A stretch of DNA of 64,000 nucleotides from Bacteriovoracia bacterium (GTDB lineage: Bacteria > Bdellovibrionota > UBA1018 > JBFWNL01): assembly GCA_050251055.1 (NCBI GenBank), contig JBFWNL010000001.1:171825-235824 (forward strand), written 5' to 3'. This document shows, in pieces, positions 52,074-63,999 of this stretch. Under the pieces are notes generated by a model that was given only the letters and a program-made list of their open reading frames with translations, searched no databases and was not told the DNA's origin. Made by a program: the position numbers and the translations under genes. The stretch's first letter is position 1. Each line of letters opens with the position of its first letter.

Positions 52074-53606
52074 TTAGCGGTTGCTGATTTCCTGCGCGTA
52101 GGCGTCTTTACCGGCCTGCAAAAGCTTCAGGTAGAGATCCTGGTCGACCACGACGCCGCTCTTCTCGTATTCAAGATAAAGCATGCGAATCAGCGAATAA
52201 GGATGCGCGCAGCCGGAGAGGGTCTGCAAAACCTGGCGGTAGGCTTCCACCACGTCTAGATCCCTGAGTTCTGGGGTGGCCATCCGGATCCGATGGAAGC
52301 GCGCGCCCGGGGTGGCGGAGCGCTCCATTGCTTTCAGTGCCGCGAGCAACGGCTCCATGGCCTTGGCTGTGCATTGGCTAGCCATGCCCGTGAGGTGGGT
52401 GTAAACGCGGTCGGATCCGCCTAGCTTGACGAACTCGATCTCGGCCTTGAGCGCGGGATCGCGCGACGGCTCGACCATGGCCTCCGCATCGTCCAGTGCC
52501 GGGAAAAATGCAAATTCGGTGGAGGGCGCTACATCCTTGGGTAAGAGTTTACGGATGGCCTTGAACTGGCGCGCGATTGCGCGCGCGGTGGAGTCCCGGC
52601 TGCTGTCCAATGCTTTCAAGAACGAGTCGAGCACGAGTTTCGTGTTCGTGGCGGTCAGGTTGGCCGCGGATGGACCGGTGAGGAAGTTCATGTACATCTT
52701 GAACCACAGGGCCAACGTCTGCTTTTGCACCTTCTCCCCGTAGCCTTTGGGCCAAAACTCGTCCGGGTCGATATAGTAGCCGCGAAGGTGATCGGGGATC
52801 GCCTTCCAGTTCAGCAGCCCTTGGGGGAGGGGGTATTTGGAGGTGCCGCCGAAGCGGCAGCCAGTCATCTTAAATCCAAGGCCCGATTTCTTAACGCGGT
52901 AATCACCTAGGCAGATCTGCTCGAAGAAAAAGTCGCGAACGTCGGGTTCGAGTTCCACTGCAAATTTGCCGACCTCGCCCAAGGCGTCGAGCTTTCCCGG
53001 GCACGCGTTCAAGGTGTCTTTTATGGTTTTCTCATTGAAGAAATATTTTTCGAGAAAAGTAAGCCAGGTCGTGGCGTAGTCTTCCGGGGTCGAGAGGTCC
53101 GGCCACGTAAATCCCGTGAAGTTAAAGAGTCCGGCTCGGCTGTTCTGAAAGATGTCGGTTACGCAAACCTGGCCTCGTAAGCAGCCTTCCTTTCGGTAGC
53201 CGACCTTGGCTTCGGCTTCGGTGGCCGCCGGTGAGTTCTTGATCTTCTCGACTGGGCATCCCTGAAACTGCTTTGCTTGCTGGGCTCGCAGGGTATCTTC
53301 GTGCTGGGTGAGTCTTGAACACACCTCGGCGTCGCAACCATTGGTAATTGTCACGGTCTGCATGCGGTGGCACGCCGCCACGAATTCCCGGCATTTTAAG
53401 TCGTCGGGACCTTTGCCATCAAGATCAGTCCAAAGGCGCAAACAATAGTCCCGCGCGGTACTGCCGTAAGACTCGACGCCCGCGTAGTACTGGAAAAAAC
53501 CGTGAAAGTAGATGCCGTCAAAGTCGCAATCAGCGGACGCGGAAACCGGAGTTCCGAGGAGCCCCCAAGCCAAACCGATGGTCATAAGCGTGCCAGATAG
53601 CTTCAT
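52074..53606 (-). CDS. Secreted Cys-rich hypothetical protein (last gene of the AAA+ operon)
   Basis: Signal peptide MKLSGTL...ASA; ATGA overlap; N-terminal FF...C...C-x6-C...D-x3-C pattern like the sibling genes. Confidence 0.75.
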   Translation of the reverse strand: MKLSGTLMTIGLAWGLLGTPVSASADCDFDGIYFHGFFQYYAGVESYGSTARDYCLRLWTDLDGKGPDDLKCREFVAACHRMQTVTITNGCDAEVCSRLTQHEDTLRAQQAKQFQGCPVEKIKNSPAATEAEAKVGYRKEGCLRGQVCVTDIFQNSRAGLFNFTGFTWPDLSTPEDYATTWLTFLEKYFFNEKTIKDTLNACPGKLDALGEVGKFAVELEPDVRDFFFEQICLGDYRVKKSGLGFKMTGCRFGGTSKYPLPQGLLNWKAIPDHLRGYYIDPDEFWPKGYGEKVQKQTLALWFKMYMNFLTGPSAANLTATNTKLVLDSFLKALDSSRDSTARAIARQFKAIRKLLPKDVAPSTEFAFFPALDDAEAMVEPSRDPALKAEIEFVKLGGSDRVYTHLTGMASQCTAKAMEPLLAALKAMERSATPGARFHRIRMATPELRDLDVVEAYRQVLQTLSGCAHPYSLIRMLYLEYEKSGVVVDQDLYLKLLQAGKDAYAQEISNR

Positions 53607-54999
53607 GGTGCGCCGATCTCCGTTTGGAGTTGATCCAGATAGGTTTTTGCTCGGGCGGTCGTATCTTGATACAGAGAAAACCAGCGTACCCGCTCGCCGA
53701 TGACGGGGCGATCGAGCTGTAAAAATTTCGCCAGTGCTTCCGCCGAGAATAGACGCTGTAGGCGCCTCGCCGGGCTCTCTGTGCGGTCGGTGATCACCGC
53801 CTCCATCGTAGCGATATAAACATAGGCGGCAACCGCCTGCCTTTGGGAGGCAATCGCGACCGGCCACCGGGAAGGCTCGCTATCTAAGGTGGACGCAATA
53901 CGAACCAGCGCCGGCAAAATAGCCGGGTTTTCACGCACAGCGGTCTGGATTTTTTCTCCGGCCAGTGGGAGCGAGTCCTTCGTGCGGAAGTTTTCGATCA
54001 CCGCGTGATGCGGAGCGGTTTTAATCTCCGGAAATGTCAATTCCGCAGGCGTGTCCGCGGCGCTGAGCCCTCGGCGTATGGCTTCGTCAACGTAAAGCTG
54101 GGCCAAGGGTTGATAGAGGCGCGCGCGGCTCATGCCTTTGGGGTATCTTTCGCCACTGACATGGGCCAAGAAGTCACGAAGGTCGCGCACAAGTCCGGAG
54201 TCGGATTGGTCACCCGCGGTCACAAGCCGCTCGTGGAGGGTGCGTAGATAAGCTTGCAAAAAGCGATCGTGGTAGAGGTGGGCGTATAATTCGACTTCGA
54301 ATGTGCCCAGCTTAATTTTCTCCGTTCTCCCGAAGAAATTGATTTTTTGAACGATCGGCTTATCGGATTTGGGGTACATGCCGAGAATCACCCGCTCGTA
54401 GTCAGCGAACGAAATTTTTGGATCAAGTCTAGGGATGACGGTGGTCGGGTAAGCATCCCACGGGCGCTGGCCGCCAATAGATGATCCGAAATGGGGATGC
54501 ACGGTGGTGATGAGTTCCTGCCACGCTTCTTGAGCCTCTTTCACCGAAGCCGTGGGCAAGGTACCGCCCACCGACAGCACGGGTGCGCCGCGGTCGGTGT
54601 ATTCCACCCCGCAAGCGTGCCATTCGGGAGGCCCATTTCTGCGTCCCCCGCTCGCGCGGAGAATGGTTCGCAGTATTCTAATGTTTCCTGCCATTCTTTT
54701 GTCCCGAAGTCGACCTTGGGAGCAGGCGGCGTGGGGGGAAGAATCGTCTGGCAAAGCGCGCGATCCTGCTCGTCGTGCGGATAAGGACCGCCGGGCTCTC
54801 CCGGTTTAGTCCTCAGTAGCTGACGGCACACGCGTCGGTAGAGCGCGCATTCGTCCGAAGCCTTCTCCTGGGTTCCTGGACATTGACGTTGCAAATCGGC
54901 TCGGATGAGTTCGGATGCGAAAAATTCATGGGCCTGCGCTGACGTCACGCCACCGAGGAGCACGATCGACGTTAAGGAAAAGAGTCCAAGACGGTTCAC
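53603..54999 (-). pseudogene. Secreted paralog-family protein split by a frameshift (ORFs 54541-54999 and 53603-54754)
   Basis: Signal peptide and Cys N-domain lie in one frame and the family C-domain in the -1 frame; one extra G in the G5 tract at 54645-54649 would fuse them into about 465 aa. Confidence 0.7.
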
Positions 55000-55988
55000 T
55001 TTTTCTTCTCCTTACCGTTTTTCTTAGGGGTTTCCACGACGCTTTTTCCTTCGAGTTTGGGCCAGAGTTGCTCAATGTGTCCGACGCTAGTGAAGTTTTT
55101 CGCGGCCCCTTCCGTATCAATGCGGATATCCGCAAGCAGCCGGCGGTGGGACTCGGCGACGGCGTCGAGGCTCTTGCCCAAGAAGGCAGCGGGGGTTCCG
55201 CAGACAGCCGATACCTTGCCCACCACATACTCGGTGCCACTGACGACCATGGGCGGGAGTTCTTGGTATATCGACTTGAGGATTCCGATTACTTCGCCAG
55301 AGTTATTGAGCAGGGGGCTGCCGGAATTTCCGGGGCGCGCGGTACAGCCTTTCATATCGACGTTTAGCTTTTCGAAGCCGGTGGTAGAGCACATCTCGAT
55401 GTCGAGCGTGGCGAGATACCCGATGCGGGGTTCGGAAATATAGCGAGCATCGAAAGTGGATGAAATCTTCCAGGGATGCTTCGGAAAGGAATCGGACTTC
55501 GCCGCAATCGGAAGCGGTTCCACGCCTCGGATGGAAACCGGCTCCTCAAGCTCCAAGATCGCGATGTCCTGTTCAGTGCTGTCATAGGTGATCGCGGTCA
55601 TTTGGTACGTTTGGATCTTGCTTACCGCCGCTACGGCGTTTGAGGCGAGATTTGCATCTTGGGGAAACTCACGAAAGATCGCCTGGACGCGGACAAATTG
55701 CTCCGGCCGCCGCGCGATGCAATGGTGGTTCGTCATTACGAACTGTGAGCCGATGAGGAAGCCCGTACACGCGCTGATGTCGTCCATCTTTTCGCCAGCC
55801 GGTGTTTTCATGAGCTTTTCGACGACGAGGGTGGCCACGGCGGCGCGTGCGCGCGCGACGCCCTCGGGCATCACGGTGCTTAAATCGCTCGAGTCCGCGA
55901 GGGCGGCACTCGATGTGAACCCGAGCGCAAGGGCTAGCGGCAGCGCCAGTCCCGCGGGGGAGAAGCCGTCAGTGGATCTCGATCGCAT
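54996..55988 (-). CDS. Secreted trypsin-like serine protease
   Basis: Signal peptide; CTGFLIGSQFVMTNHHC, DIAIL, PGNSGSPLLN. Confidence 0.9.
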   Translation of the reverse strand: MRSRSTDGFSPAGLALPLALALGFTSSAALADSSDLSTVMPEGVARARAAVATLVVEKLMKTPAGEKMDDISACTGFLIGSQFVMTNHHCIARRPEQFVRVQAIFREFPQDANLASNAVAAVSKIQTYQMTAITYDSTEQDIAILELEEPVSIRGVEPLPIAAKSDSFPKHPWKISSTFDARYISEPRIGYLATLDIEMCSTTGFEKLNVDMKGCTARPGNSGSPLLNNSGEVIGILKSIYQELPPMVVSGTEYVVGKVSAVCGTPAAFLGKSLDAVAESHRRLLADIRIDTEGAAKNFTSVGHIEQLWPKLEGKSVVETPKKNGKEKKK

Positions 55989-58900
55989 ACCCTTCGTCCT
56001 TCGTGCCTTGCCCCTCTACGACCACGCGCAAAGTTTTTCCGGCCAAGTCGTTTAGCGTCAGCGTAGGCTTGCCAGTCGCCGGGTCCTTGTGCTCAAGCAT
56101 TGCGCCAAGGAGGTCATAAAAGAGCGTATTGAGGAGGTAATCCAATCCGGTTTCCAGGGGACGCGCGCCCGTACTGTCGCGCCCGTAGTTATCCCGTACA
56201 AGCTTCTCGTAAACCGGCTCGGAGAACTCGATCTTGTAAGTCGCCTTGGGGCGCTTGGCGAGCGCGTCCTTGGCCATGAGCTTCGCTAGCGCCAAGCCTT
56301 CTTCTTGATTGAGGTTGGTGTAAACTAGCCAGTTTTCGAGCGGGATACGCCCGATCGTCCAGTCGGGCATCGCGTTCTTGGCCCGCATCTCCCCTTGAAT
56401 TTCTTTAATCAAAGCGTTCTGGGAGACCATCAGCTGTTGTTTATTGTAGTTCCGCCAGTCGGGGTTAGCCTCTTCCCAGGCCTTGATTTTCCCGATACCA
56501 AAGTTCGACGTCATGAAGATCACCCCGCGGTTGAACACGGCTTTGGCGCCGCTCGTGCTTTTGATCCAGCCTTCATCGAAGAGCACGTCAAACGCCGTGA
56601 TGATTTCTCGATTCGCCTTGTCCACTTCGTCAAACAGCACGAGGCCCGTTTTGTTCTGGTTCATGAAGTCGATGAGCGGCGCGCTGCCGTACCCGACATA
56701 CCCATGCGGCGGACCGAGCAGGCCGTCGACCTTGTGCTCTTCCTTGAACTGCTCCATTTGCCAGGACTCCATCTTGACGCCGAAGTAGCCGGAAAGGGTC
56801 TTGCCGGTGAAAGTTTTGCCGGTCCCCGAGCCGCCGAGAGCCAAGAATAGGCAAACGGGTTTGTTGGGCACGATGCCGCCCTGATAAACACGCCGGCGAA
56901 AGCAGTCGACTACCCGGTCCTTCATGCCGCGTTGACCGATGATCTTGGCGTCTAGTGCGGCGCGGAGGGCCATCACTTTTTCCTCGTCCACGTAAGGAAC
57001 GGGGATCGTCATTTTCTTCGTGGCGGCGAGCAGGTCCGGCAGTTCCACTTGCGCGGATCCCGCGACCCCTTGCAGTGACATCTTTTCGGCAAGCGCCGTG
57101 ACCGCTTCTTCCAGAATGACCATGTCCGAGGCGGGGTGTGGCGTTTCCGGGAGCTGAGTGCCGGCGATTTCAATAAGCTTGCTTTCGAGTCCTGCCGCTA
57201 AGCCGACGCCGCGTTCGGCCGCGAAGGCGTCCGCCCGCATGCGGATGAATTGGGGGAGTTCACGCTTCATGTCGTAGTCGGGAAAAGCGTGGTCGTGCAA
57301 GGTAATCCGTAGCGCTTGCTTTTGATTGAGTTCGCTCGTCTGCTCGTTATTGCCCGAGGTGCTGGCGATCACGATTACCTGGCCCGACTGGGCAGCGGTG
57401 AGAAGGTCGTCGATGAGATCCCCGCCGTTACCGCCCATGCCGATCATCCGCTCGAGATTACGGAAAAAGAGGATAACGCGCTTGTAGCGGGCGGCCGCGA
57501 TGATGTTGGACATCTTTTCCTTCGAGAGGTCGGCTTTGCCCTGGGTGCCCAGGCTCGCGATGTCGATTTCGAAGATGTCCCAGGCGGCGGCAGAATCCTC
57601 GGGCGCTTTGGCGAGCTCTTGGGCGAGGCGGATGACGAGATCGGATGCATCCATGGCTTCGCCCGCTCGAATCATAATATTGCGTGGCTTCTCGAAGTTC
57701 ACCCGTTTACGAAACTCTTCGTAACGCACGGGCAGAAGGGGGCCGGGGCCGACCCGTCCTTGGCGCACGCCGGTAACGAGCGAGCGGCCAAATTTCTCGA
57801 TGGAAGCCGAGGCGGTCTCATCGAACGGCGCACGTACGGCCACGATTTCGGCGGCGGCTGCGGGCTTGCCATTCGGCCCGGCGGCTCGCGGACGCGTAAA
57901 GGTTTGCGAGAGGTTTTCCTGACGATTCACCATCTGGATGCCGTTGATATCGAGCACGAACTGATATTTTCGCGCGTAGTCGTTCCAGTCGAGCTTAAGC
58001 TTGTCGTTCAGAACCGTCTGCTGGCCGTCTTTACCCCAGAACTCCAGCGAAATGAGCCCTTCCCGTTGAAGTACGACATAGACACCATCGGCATTGGGAT
58101 AGGCTTGGGCCGGACAGCTGCCGAACGAGCGCGACTCCGTCGCGGATGACCACACGAGGTTGCCCGTAAGAAAGAACATCTTCGATTTGCCGGGTTCGTA
58201 AAGCTCGATTTTATACTGACCGCTCGGATCGAGGATGCGGGAGTTTGGCTCCGGCCAAATTGAGGCCGGCGTCTGTCCGGGAGGAGATACCTGCGGCTGC
58301 GCGGCGAGAGTGCGCGAAGCCGTGGTGGGAAGGGAAGTCGTGGGGCCTCCCTGTTTTCTTTCCTTCTTCTCCTTGGCTTCCGCTTCGGCTTCTTCTTCCT
58401 TGTCTTTTTCGGCGGGCGGCGCGTCGGGCTTTTTGCCGCCGGCAGCTTCCGGCGTTTTCTTCGGACCAGTGGCGTTACCGCCACCGCTGGCAGCCTTGAG
58501 CTCGGTTTGGACGGCCTCCGATTCAACGCTAAAAATTTCCCCGAGAGCCGAGCGTAGATCTTGCGCCTTGGTCTCCGGATTTAAGAAGAAGGTTTTGCCT
58601 TCGTTATCGGCCGTGATCTTATCGAGCTGGTCGGCGTACATTTTGTCCTGGCCGACGTGCACGACGCTGAATCCATTTTTGCAGGCGGACTTATGTTTAG
58701 GCAAGGTGGCCATGAGCCGCTCGGGGCCGGCTCCACCACAGCTATGCTCACCGTCGGTGAGCAGCACGACTTGCAGGCAGCCTCCACCCGCATAGGCGTC
58801 CATTTCCTTGTTCGCCAAGGTCAACGCGCCCGTGATGTCGGTGGCCCCCCCACAGACGATCGAGTTCATGGCCGCCATGAATTCTCCACCGTTGTATTCC

Positions 58901-59226
58901 TTGCCCACTCGAATGAGCACGTTGGCGGTGCCGGGCCCGCATCCGTTAAACGTAATAAGCCCGAGGGAGTACGGGTTTTTTTTCTTATCGAGCTTTGCCA
59001 CGATATCCGCCGCCGTAAGCTGCACCTGGTGCAGCATTCCTTCCGGAGGAGTCATCGAACCCGAGATGTCGAGCACGAACAGGAAATCTTTGCGGGCACC
59101 GCGGACGATTCCGGCGTCGCCTCCGACCGGAGGGTCAGCCAGGGCGTTCAAGTAGGTGAGTCCCAGGAGAAGCGTCGTCACCCAAAAGGATCGAACCAAG
59201 AATGGCAAGTAACGGGCGCGGCTCAT
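55969..59226 (-). CDS. Signal peptide + vWA + ClpA/B-type AAA+ ATPase (degenerate D1, intact D2)
   Basis: MIDAS DISGS/T/TDG; D2 GGSGTGKT, GPPHGYVGYG pore loop, LFDEVDKA, MTSN, GRI, GARPL. Confidence 0.88.
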   Translation of the reverse strand: MSRARYLPFLVRSFWVTTLLLGLTYLNALADPPVGGDAGIVRGARKDFLFVLDISGSMTPPEGMLHQVQLTAADIVAKLDKKKNPYSLGLITFNGCGPGTANVLIRVGKEYNGGEFMAAMNSIVCGGATDITGALTLANKEMDAYAGGGCLQVVLLTDGEHSCGGAGPERLMATLPKHKSACKNGFSVVHVGQDKMYADQLDKITADNEGKTFFLNPETKAQDLRSALGEIFSVESEAVQTELKAASGGGNATGPKKTPEAAGGKKPDAPPAEKDKEEEAEAEAKEKKERKQGGPTTSLPTTASRTLAAQPQVSPPGQTPASIWPEPNSRILDPSGQYKIELYEPGKSKMFFLTGNLVWSSATESRSFGSCPAQAYPNADGVYVVLQREGLISLEFWGKDGQQTVLNDKLKLDWNDYARKYQFVLDINGIQMVNRQENLSQTFTRPRAAGPNGKPAAAAEIVAVRAPFDETASASIEKFGRSLVTGVRQGRVGPGPLLPVRYEEFRKRVNFEKPRNIMIRAGEAMDASDLVIRLAQELAKAPEDSAAAWDIFEIDIASLGTQGKADLSKEKMSNIIAAARYKRVILFFRNLERMIGMGGNGGDLIDDLLTAAQSGQVIVIASTSGNNEQTSELNQKQALRITLHDHAFPDYDMKRELPQFIRMRADAFAAERGVGLAAGLESKLIEIAGTQLPETPHPASDMVILEEAVTALAEKMSLQGVAGSAQVELPDLLAATKKMTIPVPYVDEEKVMALRAALDAKIIGQRGMKDRVVDCFRRRVYQGGIVPNKPVCLFLALGGSGTGKTFTGKTLSGYFGVKMESWQMEQFKEEHKVDGLLGPPHGYVGYGSAPLIDFMNQNKTGLVLFDEVDKANREIITAFDVLFDEGWIKSTSGAKAVFNRGVIFMTSNFGIGKIKAWEEANPDWRNYNKQQLMVSQNALIKEIQGEMRAKNAMPDWTIGRIPLENWLVYTNLNQEEGLALAKLMAKDALAKRPKATYKIEFSEPVYEKLVRDNYGRDSTGARPLETGLDYLLNTLFYDLLGAMLEHKDPATGKPTLTLNDLAGKTLRVVVEGQGTKDEGYAIEIH

Positions 59227-62200
59227 TTTTCACCTCCGGCGACGAAGTCCGACGTGATTAGGTTTTTCCGGTCGAGCTGCTTCTGGATTTCGGGATCTTC
59301 GAGGTTGGTGATGACTTCGAGTTTTCCGTTTGGCATCAGCACAATGTAAAAGTCATGGAGATCCGCAAGCGAGTCTTCCGTCAGGGTTTCCTGGATTTGG
59401 TTGAATTTTTCCGCGACCTTGGTGAAGACTTCATTGTCGAGCGTGTTCTTGATCGTGTGTCCGTTGCCGGCGTTCGCGTTGCGGTTCTTGTCGCTGGCGG
59501 CCATGCCTTGGCGGACGACTTTAAGCGCGTAGCCGCGAGAAAGGTGGATCTTCACGGGGCGATTCCAGTTGTCTTTTAGGCGCGTTTCCAGGCGCTTGAG
59601 CTGAAGCGCGAGCACGCCCAAACCTTGATCTTCGGTAAATGGGGTGAAGATGCAAACCTTGCTCGAAATCCGGCTCCAGATGAAGTCGGGGATCTGCCCG
59701 CGCTCGAGATTCTCCTCGTTCGTGCGCACCAGCCCGCCTTGGGCGATGCGGTCGATAAAGAGCGCCTCGTTGTCGGCGTTGACTTCGGCCATGCCGGATT
59801 CGAGTGAAATCGCCTGAATGTCCTTCGCCGCGTAATTGGCGGTGAGGATTACGAGGGTGCTGCGGAAGTCGAGGTAGTCATCGTCGTTCTCGCCGGATAA
59901 GGGGTAGCGTCCTTCCTCGAGAATGGGGTGCAGGGCCTTAATGACGTCGGGCTCGGCCTTGTCGATTTCGTCAAACAACACAATCCGGGGCTTGCTGCCC
60001 ATTTCCTTGAGCTTGGCGGCATCTTTGGACGAGATGAGCTGCGAAGGACCGGCGGCCAAGTTGATTGTATAGAGGGGGAACTTGAGCACATCGGCGAGCG
60101 CGCGAGCGCTTTCGGTTTTGCCCACTCCTTTGGGGCCGATGAAGAGAAACGTCCCGTAGCCGCGCGTCTTGTCGTACATGCGGGTCCGGATCATAGAAGC
60201 CGCCTGGGCGAGGCGCTCGATCGCGCGATCGTGGCCGACGATGCGCTGGTGCATTGCCGCTTTGAAGGAGTCGTCGTCGTGGGAAATTAATTTGACCTGG
60301 TAGGTCGCCTCCGCGAACTGTCCCAGAACCTCGGTGTTTACGAGGGTCGGCTGATTGCCGGAAACGGCGGCTTGCTGGGTGCGGGCGTAAGCGCCAATTT
60401 CCGCGAGCGTGGTGAGGGTCCGCTCAGGTTCGGCGAGTTCCGGGTGAAATTGCGCGGACATTTCGAAGACGCGAGCCAGGACGTCGTCGCGGAATTGGAC
60501 GGCGTGACGCATCTGGATCTGGTAGAGCTGGGATCGGACGATGGCGCGGAGTACGTCGCCCTGGGGTGGCTGTACGTAAATGGTGCGGGCCAGGGTGTCG
60601 AGCACCGGGTTGTTCTTCTTGGCTTGTTCCCAGTGCTTATCTTCCGTAATGGTGACGATGAGCATGGAGCGGCTTTCGAGGTCGCTTACGTCGTTGCCGT
60701 TCGCCAAGCTGTTGAATGCGCCCATGAGCAAAGTCAGCTGTTCGCTCGCTCCCATGTTTCCTTGCTGTTTAAGGAAATTGTCGATCACGAGCGCGGCGCG
60801 CTTGCGCCAGAATACCTTACGCAGCTCGCCCCACGGGTTCGGCGCGGTCTTCGCCGCGTCGTTCGGCCCTGCGCTTGCCCGGGCGTTTTCGATTTTGATC
60901 CCGGCTTCCCAAGTGGATTGGATTTTTTCGGGGGGAATTCCGATCAATTTAAAACTCTCGATCTCGCGCGGCAGGGTCAGCTTGTTAGCCCACGCCAGCT
61001 GGTTCGCTAGGTCTTGGACCACGTCGGCGGCATTCACCCCGCGAGGAGCCACGATATTGATCCAGCCCGTGGAGCCGTAGACGAGGTTGCCTAACAGGGC
61101 CTGTGAGTATTCGGGGCGGTGGACGACATTCATGCTCTCGCCGAGCTCCGCGCGCTGGGTATAGTCGGTGAATTTGTGCTCGCGCAGGACTTTGTGGTCT
61201 TCGTCGCTCAGGCGGTTACGGAGGCTGTAGTTCGCGGTTTCGAGCTCGGACCCGTCGTAGAGCACCAGATAGCGCTCCCATTGCCCGTTGGCATTGCGAT
61301 TCTGCACCGTGGCTTGGTTATTGATGATTGAAAACTTCTTGCTTGCGTTGCCGGGACGGGAAAAGGAAACGCGGACGGATTGGGTGCGCGTGTCGTACTT
61401 CAGGAAAGAGAGCTTCTGCGAGGCGGATTCGCTCAGATCGCCCTCCAGAAAAAAGATGCCTTCGCGGATGATCGAGACGCGCATCGCGAGCTGGGAAAGA
61501 TCGAAGTTCGCGGGGGCGAGTTCGGTTAGCGCTCCCTCTTGGGTGGCATAGTATAAAGCGGCTCGCTTACTCTGCGGGGATTGGCCTACGAAGTAAAAGC
61601 CGGACGAAGATACGTCGCTCGTCACGATCTGGCTAAACGGGGTTACGGGAAAATCCTTCACTTGTTTTCCGTCGTTGCTGGCGTAGGTCAGGATTTTCTG
61701 GCCATTTACCTTGCGGGTGACGAGCACGCCGCCGGCGATGGGGTAGAGATCTCCCGCGGAGGGCGGCGTTCCTGGCAAGATGAGGCGCTTCTCATCGATT
61801 TCGAAGCGTAGTTTGGCGTTCTGGCGAAGTACCCAAGGGAGGGCATTGGGGTTGCCGACTTGAATGCTCACGAAGCCGATTTGGTAGCTGCCGTTTCCGC
61901 TATTTTGCGCTACTTGCGGGATCGCGGGCTTTGGTTCACCGGGGCCCGCGATTTTCACGTCGCGCGTCAGTGTGCCGGGCTGATCGGGGTTGTCGATGAC
62001 ACAAGAAGCGACGTTGTATTGCGCGACGATCCCGCCGTTTCCGCGCTCCAGGGTCAAGGAGGTCTGGTCTTGATAGTAAAGGCCGGGCTTAATCGTCGCC
62101 TTGTATCCGTCTTTTCTGAGTCGCGCCTGAAGGAGCGTGGCCTCGTCTTCGGGGAGCGCGAAGTAATGGTAAGAAGGAGCGGTGCCTTTGGCTGCCTGGG

Positions 62201-62264
62201 CAAGCGTGGCGGAAAAAAGCATGAGACCGCTGATGGCTAAAAAGGAACTCACCTGTGATTTCAT
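59223..62264 (-). CDS. Signal peptide + beta-rich domain + ClpA/B-type AAA+ ATPase (degenerate D1)
   Basis: AQA signal; FTDYTQRAELG D1 remnant; D2 GPKGVGKT, LFDEIDKA, LEEGR, DFRSTLVILTAN; no GYVG loop. Confidence 0.85.
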   Translation of the reverse strand: MKSQVSSFLAISGLMLFSATLAQAAKGTAPSYHYFALPEDEATLLQARLRKDGYKATIKPGLYYQDQTSLTLERGNGGIVAQYNVASCVIDNPDQPGTLTRDVKIAGPGEPKPAIPQVAQNSGNGSYQIGFVSIQVGNPNALPWVLRQNAKLRFEIDEKRLILPGTPPSAGDLYPIAGGVLVTRKVNGQKILTYASNDGKQVKDFPVTPFSQIVTSDVSSSGFYFVGQSPQSKRAALYYATQEGALTELAPANFDLSQLAMRVSIIREGIFFLEGDLSESASQKLSFLKYDTRTQSVRVSFSRPGNASKKFSIINNQATVQNRNANGQWERYLVLYDGSELETANYSLRNRLSDEDHKVLREHKFTDYTQRAELGESMNVVHRPEYSQALLGNLVYGSTGWINIVAPRGVNAADVVQDLANQLAWANKLTLPREIESFKLIGIPPEKIQSTWEAGIKIENARASAGPNDAAKTAPNPWGELRKVFWRKRAALVIDNFLKQQGNMGASEQLTLLMGAFNSLANGNDVSDLESRSMLIVTITEDKHWEQAKKNNPVLDTLARTIYVQPPQGDVLRAIVRSQLYQIQMRHAVQFRDDVLARVFEMSAQFHPELAEPERTLTTLAEIGAYARTQQAAVSGNQPTLVNTEVLGQFAEATYQVKLISHDDDSFKAAMHQRIVGHDRAIERLAQAASMIRTRMYDKTRGYGTFLFIGPKGVGKTESARALADVLKFPLYTINLAAGPSQLISSKDAAKLKEMGSKPRIVLFDEIDKAEPDVIKALHPILEEGRYPLSGENDDDYLDFRSTLVILTANYAAKDIQAISLESGMAEVNADNEALFIDRIAQGGLVRTNEENLERGQIPDFIWSRISSKVCIFTPFTEDQGLGVLALQLKRLETRLKDNWNRPVKIHLSRGYALKVVRQGMAASDKNRNANAGNGHTIKNTLDNEVFTKVAEKFNQIQETLTEDSLADLHDFYIVLMPNGKLEVITNLEDPEIQKQLDRKNLITSDFVAGGEK

Positions 62265-62347: not shown

Positions 62348-63640
62348 TTAGGGGCTTACCGTTGATTCGAGGCTGTCGGTAAGCGCCTTGGGCAGCAGGG
62401 CGAGGGCCCGTTCCGAGGCATCCAGATATTCGTTTCTCCAGCGGGGTTGGCCACCGGAGGGCGGTTGATCGAGCTCCAAGCACCCGGATAAGCGCCGAAG
62501 CAGGAAGAGGTACTCTAGGCGCTCGGGGGCCCGGCCCGTGAGGGAGGTGGCTAGCGCGTCAACCGAGCCAATATAGATATGAGCGCCGAGCGCCTGTACG
62601 CTCGCGAAGGAATCCTCTTGGAACGACGCGGGGTCGAGTTTCCGACGCATCTCCAGCGTCTGGATCGCGTAGTTTAATAAGGAACCCCCCGGAGGGTTGG
62701 CGAGCAGATTTCGACTGGCCTCCTCTTGCACCCTCCAGGCGGATGGAGAGACCTCGTTGTCGGCGACCAGTCCCGCGAGGATCTGCCGCTGTACTTCCGT
62801 CTTTCCCCAGTTGGCGATCTGGGCTTTGAGCTGGGCTTGGTTTTCCACCAGCTTGGCCCGCCGATCGAGATACGATTCGATTTCACCGCGAATTCGCATG
62901 ACTTCGGCCAGTAGCCCGGCCGCGCTCGGCATATCCGCATTTTCTTCCAGAGCGGTTTGAAGCTCACGAAGATCCCGTAGAAACTCTTCCGGCTTCGTGT
63001 AGTCTCGTTCGGTGTAACGCCGCTGCGTGAGCTTCACGTAGTGGGTAAAGAGCGCCAGCTCCATCTGGTGCTGGTAGGCATCGAGCTGGTTTTTTGGAAT
63101 CGTCGCTTCGAAGAGATCGAATCCAAGGCGGAATCTATGGCGGTAGTTAGCGGGAAAGCGCACGGCTTCCAAGAGCCGTGAAAAGTCCTTGAACTGCGTC
63201 GCGGTATTGAGGCCGGGTAGCCAACCCCGCAACCGATCGGCCCATTGCATAGGCTGGAGTTCATAATCTTTTTTAAGGGAGCTGAATTTTTTTAAGAGCG
63301 AGGTCACGGTTTCCTCGCCCGTGGGGAGGCGAGGGGACGGGACGCCGATGCTTCCCTTAGGCGCGGGGGCGGGCTCCAAGTAGCCCAATCCTCGCTCCCT
63401 TCGGCTTTTTCGGAGCTGCTCGCAAAGCGCCTGGTCCTCGCTATCGAGCTCCTTGGAGGTTTCGCAGGCGAATGCCAAGCTGTCACAGAGGGCGGCGTCC
63501 CGGCCCGATAGGGTCGGCAAGTGAATGCAAGTATTGATGGTAAAACTCACCAGCCGGGGATCGGAAAAAAACTGATACGCCTCCGCTGGCCTAGGCACTA
63601 GGCTGCCGAGGAGCAGAATCAGGGCGCCCGTTCGTCTCAT
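62348..63640 (-). CDS. Secreted paralog-family hypothetical protein
   Basis: Signal MRRTGALILLL...AEA; YQFF...C...C-x6-C...DQALC; C-domain HIYIG...LELDQPPSGGQPRWRNEYLD. Confidence 0.8.
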   Translation of the reverse strand: MRRTGALILLLGSLVPRPAEAYQFFSDPRLVSFTINTCIHLPTLSGRDAALCDSLAFACETSKELDSEDQALCEQLRKSRRERGLGYLEPAPAPKGSIGVPSPRLPTGEETVTSLLKKFSSLKKDYELQPMQWADRLRGWLPGLNTATQFKDFSRLLEAVRFPANYRHRFRLGFDLFEATIPKNQLDAYQHQMELALFTHYVKLTQRRYTERDYTKPEEFLRDLRELQTALEENADMPSAAGLLAEVMRIRGEIESYLDRRAKLVENQAQLKAQIANWGKTEVQRQILAGLVADNEVSPSAWRVQEEASRNLLANPPGGSLLNYAIQTLEMRRKLDPASFQEDSFASVQALGAHIYIGSVDALATSLTGRAPERLEYLFLLRRLSGCLELDQPPSGGQPRWRNEYLDASERALALLPKALTDSLESTVSP

Positions 63641-63999
63641 GGCTTGGCCGCCTCCTGGGAGAGCAATGGCATGAGCGTTTGCAGCTGGGACGAACGATCT
63701 TGATAGTCCGTCCACCAGCGGACTTGCTCGCCTTGAACGGGCTGATCGAGGTTTAACCGGGCCCGAAGCTCCGTGAGCAGGGCAGCGACCTGGATCTTTG
63801 CTTCCGCCGACTCCGCCGGCATCTGCAGAAGCGCGCTTACGGCGCCGATGTACGCGTTGGCGGCCACGCTTTGCAGTCCTCCGAAATCAGGGGAGGTCCG
63901 CAAGTCGGGATCCTGCAGGGTGCGGAGTTCGTAGATGGCCAGCAGGCGCGCGGGGAAAGTATTTTGCGGTTCGCGAATCGAAAGCGTGGTTTGCGCGAA
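63637..63999 (-). CDS. Paralog-family protein, C-terminal part (5'-truncated by window)
   Basis: Frame open to the window edge; NAYIG...LNLDQPVQGEQVRWWTDYQD; ATGA overlap with the next gene. Confidence 0.75.
   Translation of the reverse strand, partial: FAQTTLSIREPQNTFPARLLAIYELRTLQDPDLRTSPDFGGLQSVAANAYIGAVSALLQMPAESAEAKIQVAALLTELRARLNLDQPVQGEQVRWWTDYQDRSSQLQTLMPLLSQEAAKP

Follow-up and report, generated by a model that had tools for sequence, protein, structure and literature searches.

A conserved pair of unlike Clp-type ATPases with predicted export signals, encoded with a vWA domain and a trypsin-like protease in Bdellovibrionota

We analyzed a stretch of 64,000 nucleotides from the genome of a Bacteriovoracia bacterium (contig JBFWNL010000001.1 of assembly GCA_050251055.1, positions 171,825 to 235,824), hereafter the window, which contains on the minus strand two adjacent open reading frames (ORFs), A and B, that overlap by 4 bp and encode unlike proteins with two tandem AAA+ ATPase modules each, D1 and D2 (Table 1). 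From the sequence alone, the two products had been predicted to form an asymmetric pair in which both D1 rings are degenerate and a single subunit, B, keeps the GYVG pore loop and the sensor-2 Arg in D2 (the original prediction). All the motifs listed in support of this claim were recovered in their places, and an alignment with ClpA and ClpB of the same genome put them into the expected Walker A, Walker B, pore-loop, Arg-finger and sensor-2 columns, so that they are not chance look-alikes. The genes are followed by that for a trypsin-like serine protease, the start of which overlaps the 3' end of gene B by 20 bp. The stretch is covered without differences by contigs of two public runs, both of which may be the source of the window DNA.

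Table 1 Genes, domains and motifs of the A/B locus (window coordinates; residue numbers are those of the respective protein)
Feature	Coordinates	Strand	Description
Gene A	59223..62264	-	1013 aa: signal peptide, beta-rich N-domain, dead D1, D2 without GYVG loop or sensor-2
A predicted Sec signal peptide	62193..62264	-	aa 1 to about 24, ending just ahead of the conserved domain start; called by our own heuristic
A N-domain	61230..62186	-	all-beta, propeller-like blades, family-specific
A D1, degenerate	60360..61187	-	Walker A APRGVNAA 61026-61049 (residue 406); Walker B VIDNFL 60771-60788 (493)
A D2	59310..60272	-	Walker A GPKGVGKT 60114-60137 (710); Walker B DEIDK 59958-59972 (765); Arg finger WSRI 59667-59678 (863)
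A D2 losses		-	pore-loop region deleted about 60009-60062; sensor-2 lost 59454-59468
Gene B	55969..59226	-	1085 aa: signal peptide, vWA, charged Pro-rich linker, small beta N-domain, dead D1, complete D2
B predicted Sec signal peptide	59137..59226	-	aa 1 to about 30; judged by eye, unflagged by our own heuristic
vWA domain	58522..59088	-	MIDAS (DISGS 59056-59070, residue 53; T; D), four invariant Cys; separate gene in other loci
B charged low-complexity linker	58252..58509	-	in-frame fusion; other frames without alternative start
B N-domain	57817..58239	-	small, beta-rich; four Cys in some orthologues
B D1, degenerate	57052..57801	-	RAGEAMDAS 57643-57669 (520); FFRNLE 57451-57468 (587); Clp D1 fold kept
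B D2, complete	56077..56979	-	Walker A GGSGTGKT 56812-56835 (798); PHGYVGY 56689-56709 (840); DEVDK 56617-56631 (866); GRI 56344-56352 (959); GARPL 56155-56169 (1020)
Trypsin-like serine protease	54996..55988	-	330 aa; signal-peptide-like start; His, Asp and Ser motifs intact (TNHHC, DIAIL, GNSGSP)

Domain architecture and export signals of the two ATPases

Within the window pair, it is indeed B that keeps the D2 GYVG loop and the sensor-2 Arg; in A, the sequence GNGHT at residue 933 stands in place of GARP. The two proteins are 17% identical in D1 and 20% in D2. The suggestion that D1 is retained as a structural ring is supported, as regards the fold, by a structural model of the B D1, which appears to keep the Clp D1 fold and matches D1 of ClpA, ClpC and ClpB (Foldseek E 3e-12; canonical Clps were included in the alignment behind the model).

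The N-domain of A had been described as beta-rich and possibly propeller-like. The first part of this description agrees with our model, which is almost all-beta (predicted local distance difference test, pLDDT, of 75). As for the second, the best structural matches are propeller proteins, all of them weak (Z of at most 9.2, root mean square deviation of 5.1 over 165 residues, TM 0.3-0.36), and the model matches no closed propeller family and no named fold clearly; propeller-like is a fair description of the domain, and no family can be named. The model of the B N-domain is of low confidence (pLDDT below 60 over most of the domain), and there is no more than a hint that the A and B N-domains are homologous (hhalign probability 8%, E 0.004). 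Searches of the Atlas with both N-domains yielded nothing above the search threshold.

The most unusual features of the locus go beyond the original prediction, namely the predicted export signals on both ATPases and the neighboring protease. In the window, A, B and the trypsin-like protein all begin with a short hydrophobic segment that ends in a small-x-small motif. Signal peptides were called with a simple heuristic of our own, not with SignalP; it was positive for 20 of the 21 A-type and 8 of the 11 B-type proteins vs 3 of 147 canonical Clps. In the A-type proteins, the hydrophobic segment usually stops right before the conserved domain start, and signal-like starts are found on nearly every gene of the operons described below. 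Furthermore, the vWA proteins combine the metal ion-dependent adhesion site (MIDAS) motif with four invariant Cys, and two B orthologues have four Cys in the small N-domain and one or none in the ATPase part. The invariant Cys of the vWA proteins and the confinement of Cys to the B N-domain fit an oxidizing compartment and, hence, export. From such sequence features, all four parts (A, vWA, B and trypsin) are predicted to be exported via Sec. A search of the window genome for an exported ClpP or Hsp70 found neither; its single ClpP lacks a signal peptide. Another ATPase of this genome, a classical AAA protein of 453 aa (G000:C3:92876-95731), also has a signal-peptide-like start and is followed by a second signal-peptide gene.

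Conservation of the operon and of the motif pattern

Full-length profiles placed a true member of the family (in genome G181) at the level of ClpA and failed to single out four members that were found later; because of this weak discrimination, we adopted a profile of the A N-domain, and the family counts given here are lower bounds. This profile identified A in 12 of the 401 genomes of the phylum (14 loci), and B was found in 10 of the 401 at E<1e-187, leaving uncounted two further matches near 1e-96 that cover the B profile partially and lie in ClpA-sized frames. Each of the 10 genomes with B contains A as well, in equal copy number, two of each in the window genome (G000) and in G347. The genomes with A only are G284, which is 73% complete and has the gene on a 2.6-kb contig, and G242, in which A has lost D2 and adjoins neither vWA nor B. 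In three other genomes (G290, G167 and G293), parts of the operon lie at the ends of different contigs. Among 127 genomes of the same class, an A match at E<=1e-30 is confined to the window genome itself, and the system is therefore patchy; a search of the class with the B protein of the second operon copy described below was swamped by ClpA-level matches. A profile search of 1.84 billion representatives added seven A-type proteins that stand out clearly from the Clp background, together with several weaker ones; one of these proteins clusters at 90% with a protein whose name assigns it to a Bacteriovoracaceae bacterium. A word-indexed homologue search with D1-D2 of B returned generic Clps only among 8000 candidates, and in scans for related loci none of the 160 loci listed was better than E 7e-35.

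Nine contigs, which come from seven genomes, preserve the order A-vWA-B (the window, C10, L216, L217, L218, L219, L221, L223 and L239). In eight of these nine complete loci, vWA is a separate gene, fused to B in the window only, so that the originally suggested role of the vWA domain as the recognition domain of B does not hold in general. B additionally possesses its own N-domain, which is small and beta-rich. The stand-alone vWA proteins have a C-terminal tail to which the first part of the B linker in the window is similar. We considered an assembly error as the origin of the fusion and set it aside; the other frames offer no alternative start and the covering contigs show no differences. 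Eight of the nine loci have a trypsin-like gene after B; the remaining one encodes a trypsin, its motifs intact, that is joined to the N-terminus of A. Such trypsin-A fusions, with a Pro/Ala linker and intact His and Ser motifs, occur in three genomes (L220:7949-11722, L221:8152-11922 and L222:8364-12077); in relatives, the A N-domain may be preceded by a tethered domain, either trypsin or FGE-sulfatase-like.

Besides ordinary ClpA and ClpB, the window genome contains a second copy of the operon, G000:C10:21852-29785 (L001:7853-15786), with A-type, vWA, B-type and trypsin genes, located between genes that we take, from their sequences, to encode a sigma-70 factor and a DNA primase. Its A protein has an N-terminal FGE-sulfatase-like domain and an intact D1 Walker A, its vWA is separate, and the D1 motifs of its B protein are intact.

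Motifs were counted in an alignment with ClpA and ClpB of the window genome and with intact paralogues. At about 20% overall identity, the D2 Walker A is intact in all 21 A and all 14 B proteins. In B, the catalytic Glu and the Arg finger of D2 are kept in 14 of 14 and so is an aromatic pore loop (GY[VI]G type in 11, eroded to GPPGGF or GPPAGY in the three members of the L223/L239/L251 clade); sensor-2 is present in 12 of 14. In A, the GYVG loop is deleted in 21 of 21, most members retaining a short F-x-G-F stretch that A of the window lacks too, and six of the 21, the window protein among them, have the catalytic Glu, the other 15 carrying a replacement. The proposed division of labor between the D2 modules is thus family-wide and sharper than originally claimed (GYVG-type loop in 0/21 A vs aromatic loop in 14/14 B; Glu in 6/21 vs 14/14). 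By contrast, loss of sensor-2 from A, correct for the window, does not extend to the family, as 7 of 19 A proteins keep it. Likewise, degeneracy of both D1 modules holds for the window pair and for six of the nine complete pairs, but not as a rule: the D1 Walker A Lys and Walker B Glu occur together in 0 of 21 A and in 5 of 14 B proteins, including B of the C10 copy. Given this motif pattern across the orthologues, the D2 asymmetry is, judging from the alignment, old and general; a dead D1 does not characterize the whole family, and sensor-2 has been lost from some members only. The Arg finger of A is present in 15 of 20 proteins, and its position is directly preceded by an invariant Trp; this Trp and the universal D2 Walker A suggest a conserved ring interface.

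Two variants of this pattern were noticed. In L223 and L239, B has lost sensor-2 and A has an Arg at this position, the reverse of the window, and two B-type proteins (L217:4586-8224 and P0237) have a duplicated D2 (D1-D2-D2) with GY[VI]G and GAR in both copies.

Phylogenetic analysis placed A and B in one group each (98% support in the Shimodaira-Hasegawa-like approximate likelihood ratio test), with subclades that mirror each other, and the pairwise identities of A and B correlate over nine pairs (rho 0.69, 2 of 20000 permutations). The trees are quick and FastTree trees in which the window proteins sit on long branches and are placed with uncertainty; one omits the truncated A_L240, and another omits in addition four near-duplicates and seven reference rows. 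A signal-peptide Clp with an A-type N-domain and an intact D1 Walker A (P0243) takes a position between A and the other Clps and may be similar to the ancestral form.

The A/B pair is bordered by a duplicated cassette of secreted-looking proteins (window positions 52074-55988 and 62348-63999, continuing to G000:C1:239172). Upstream and downstream trypsins of the cassette share 48% identity, a protein of 475 aa is similar to one of 597 aa, and paralogues of 454 and 455 aa lie between. A third copy in the window genome (G000:C8:120086-123498) has the trypsin fused to a protein like that of 475 aa. At window positions 53603-54999, ORFs of 152 aa (with a signal-like start) and 383 aa overlap by 214 bp in different frames and may represent one frameshifted gene of the 454-aa family. 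PADLOC matches in the locus (DolB, PDC-M37B and RT-Protease_XI) span only D2 or the trypsin domain, and we did not adopt a defense-system interpretation.

A possible mixed ring outside the cytoplasm and its alternatives

The evidence in hand consists of the motif pattern, the gene order and the fusions. It leads us to favor, with slightly less than even confidence, a scheme in which A and B are exported and form one mixed Hsp100 ring, possibly a hetero-hexamer, that unfolds proteins outside the cytoplasm together with the vWA protein and the trypsin. Under this scheme, all four parts would leave the cytoplasm via Sec, and A and B would co-assemble, B being the hydrolyzing and gripping subunit through its D2 and A a nucleotide-binding scaffold with a beta-rich docking domain that often donates an Arg finger. 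The MIDAS site of vWA would capture the substrate, the D2 ring would thread it and the trypsin would cut the unfolded chain. The ATP would have to be supplied by a source other than the producer's cytoplasm, prey under attack being the most plausible one. The more far-reaching proposition, that some Bdellovibrionota export a hetero-oligomeric Hsp100 with a MIDAS catcher and a trypsin, and that prey ATP powers the dismantling of prey proteins, appears to us possible but doubtful. Bdellovibrio is reported to secrete proteins into prey and to need a MIDAS protein for efficient invasion (PMC11003981).

Several observations weigh against the favored scheme. With regard to export, our heuristic is a rough test that also flags 751 of the 2128 long ORFs of the window genome and misses B of the window, and we infer a predatory lifestyle from homologue names only, the relatives of the signal-peptide Clp of the window genome discussed below (CUB-Clp) being named from Bdellovibrionales, Oligoflexales and Bacteriovoracaceae. 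The periplasm of bacteria is generally regarded as devoid of ATP, and we know of no source of ATP outside the cytoplasm. With regard to the ring, B carries every D2 motif itself, and five of its 14 members have D1 Walker A and B intact, so that it could form a ring alone; in addition, the pore loop is eroded in three B proteins, and sensor-2 is lacking from two. The A Arg finger is missing from 5 of 20 proteins, including those of the complete loci L217 and L221, where strict alternation would silence B; alternation is therefore doubtful, and A as a constant Arg-finger donor in a strict 3:3 ring fits poorly. The mirrored trees and correlated identities indicate co-inheritance, which is expected of any operon, rather than contact. 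The protease, too, is imperfectly conserved, the trypsin-like gene beside B lacking the catalytic His motif in three of the nine loci (L218, L223 and L239, the latter two judged from the N-terminal part alone). Finally, an orphan A (L241:7251-9659) has lost the D2 Walker A, lacks vWA and B and is followed by other secreted-looking genes.

These points bear differently on the alternatives. That B acts as an active homo-hexamer, and A as a separate, mostly inactive ring or adaptor, stacked or alongside in the same exported pathway, is unlikely in our opinion. Such an arrangement would explain why all D2 motifs acting in cis and in trans are present in 12 to 14 of the 14 B proteins, five of them with an intact D1, and why A can lose the Arg finger and never has a complete D1 site. 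It is harder to reconcile with the absence of B without A from all 10 genomes with B among the 401, with the putative ring interface of A (the universally retained D2 Walker A and the invariant Trp) and with the loss of D2 from the only A found without B, that of L241.

We consider improbable a second alternative, in which the exported proteins are no motor at all but a nucleotide-binding scaffold or sensor, and prey-released ATP triggers assembly or a tethered protease. Dead D1 modules in six of nine pairs, replacement of the catalytic Glu in 15 of 21 A proteins and the eroded loops of the L223/L239/L251 clade are in line with this possibility, as is the exported CUB-Clp family, which likewise lacks D1 activity and the loop; however, the catalytic Glu, Arg finger and pore aromatic kept in all 14 B proteins are residues needed for hydrolysis-driven threading.

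Less probable still is a translocation motor, for which Plasmodium HSP101 is the model, with vWA, trypsin and the neighboring secreted proteins as cargo threaded by charged C-terminal tails. The stand-alone vWA proteins and several trypsins do end in charged, low-complexity tails, and variable secreted proteins flank the operons, but no conserved pore or membrane protein was found in the operon at the loci inspected, and the N-terminal trypsin and vWA fusions to the ATPases in some loci suit cofactors better than cargo. The least probable explanation is that the hydrophobic N-termini do not serve in export and that the proteins act in or at the cytoplasm on the cell's own ATP, which would remove the ATP problem and agrees with the high genome-wide rate of the heuristic (751/2128) but not with the small-x-small end right before the conserved domain in most members, the 3/147 rate among canonical Clps, the signal-like segment on nearly every operon gene or the four invariant Cys of vWA.

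To our knowledge, bacterial ATP-driven unfoldases are cytoplasmic homo-hexamers, and we know of no such motor outside the cytoplasm in bacteria. If the exported mixed ring of A and B that we favor is real, it would be without precedent among bacterial Clp motors, both in working outside the cytoplasm and in being heteromeric. Should the D2 catalytic residues of exported Clps prove to stay under selection, this would imply ATP-dependent remodeling beyond the producer's cytoplasm, most simply in prey. The family also represents a natural mutant series, the members of which differ in whether D1 is intact, whether sensor-2 is retained and whether vWA and trypsin are free or fused; it therefore lends itself to testing what number of catalytic and of gripping subunits an Hsp100 ring requires.

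Comparison with known systems

The closest relatives are the class I Hsp100/Clp proteins. A and B share with them the tandem D1-D2 modules, all matches to solved structures are of ClpA/B/C/E/Hsp104 types, D2 is 24-28% identical to that of ClpA and ClpB of the window genome, and B has the GYVG and GARP motifs. The differences are nevertheless substantial. A and B have a signal peptide and a beta-rich N-domain instead of ClpN repeats (no Clp_N Pfam match), the window proteins lack an M-domain, two unlike paralogues are encoded in one operon, a catalytic D1 (Walker A Lys, Walker B Glu and Arg fingers) is absent from both window proteins, and the D2 GYVG loop and sensor-2 Arg, found in every subunit of these Clps, are present in B but not in A. 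The scores of A and B against the NCBIfam equivalogs of ClpA, ClpB, ClpV, ClpG and ClpK are 54-118 bits vs cut-offs of 885-1900 (the best, 118 vs 993). The IGF/IGL loop that follows D2 sensor-1 in ClpA and ClpC is absent from both window proteins, with LGI or LGL nearby in a few B orthologues. Against ClpV/TssH (TIGR03345), the scores are 85 and 112 bits vs a cut-off of 885, and no type VI secretion system family was detected among the neighbors scanned, the genome as a whole not having been searched for this system. By these sequence comparisons, A and B descend from class I Hsp100/Clp and fall outside ClpA, ClpB, ClpV, ClpG and ClpK.

The eukaryotic Pex1/Pex6 complex belongs to the classical AAA clade. 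Its D2 ring is reported to be the only active one, its D1 ring to be inactive and the Pex6 site to matter more than that of Pex1 (PMC9265785). The resemblance consists in two unlike double-ring subunits, an inactive D1 (in the window pair), a motif-complete D2 in at least one subunit and, as predicted for A and B, D2 sites of unequal weight; Pex1/Pex6 differs in being cytosolic, in having D2 pore loops in both subunits and in that its heterohexamer is proven, that of A and B being postulated.

LAP1 has a degenerate AAA+ fold and is proposed to supply Torsin with an Arg finger (PMC4358337). Torsin-LAP1/LULL1 offers a likeness in that an AAA+ ATPase outside the cytosol, as predicted for B, is paired with a degenerate AAA+ partner; B D2 gives a weak Pfam Torsin match (E 0.004). 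Torsin, however, forms a single ring in the lumen of the endoplasmic reticulum, LAP1 lacks nucleotide motifs whereas A has a Walker A, and B has its own Arg finger.

In the MoxR/vWA and chelatase motors (NorQ/NorD, CbbQ/CbbO and CobS/CobT), an AAA+ gene is coupled to a MIDAS-bearing vWA gene, and a vWA partner with an intact MIDAS beside the ATPase is present here as well. Trypsin-like peptidases are associated with MoxR-vWA ternary systems according to a survey of MoxR-vWA conflict systems (PMC7159879), the main text of which contains no "signal peptide", "secreted" or "Bdellovibrio". Unlike these motors, A and B are paired Clp-clade double rings with export signals, and all their structure and family matches are Clp-type.

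Within Bdellovibrionota, the nearest parallel is the CUB-Clp family (P0126-P0197), represented in the window genome by G000:C2:127601-129904 (L002:7602-9905) and comprising about 70 homologues at 43-56% identity. Its members share an export signal (67 of 72 by our heuristic), a dead D1 and a live D2 Walker A and B but differ from A and B in being encoded by a single gene, in the CUB insert, in the lack of a GYVG loop and in forming a separate tree branch. We found no description of this family in the literature, nor, in a search that most subscription journals lay outside, of the A/B operon or of any exported or heteromeric bacterial Clp. What emerges from the sequences is a conserved, apparently exported operon of a Clp pair, a vWA protein and a trypsin.

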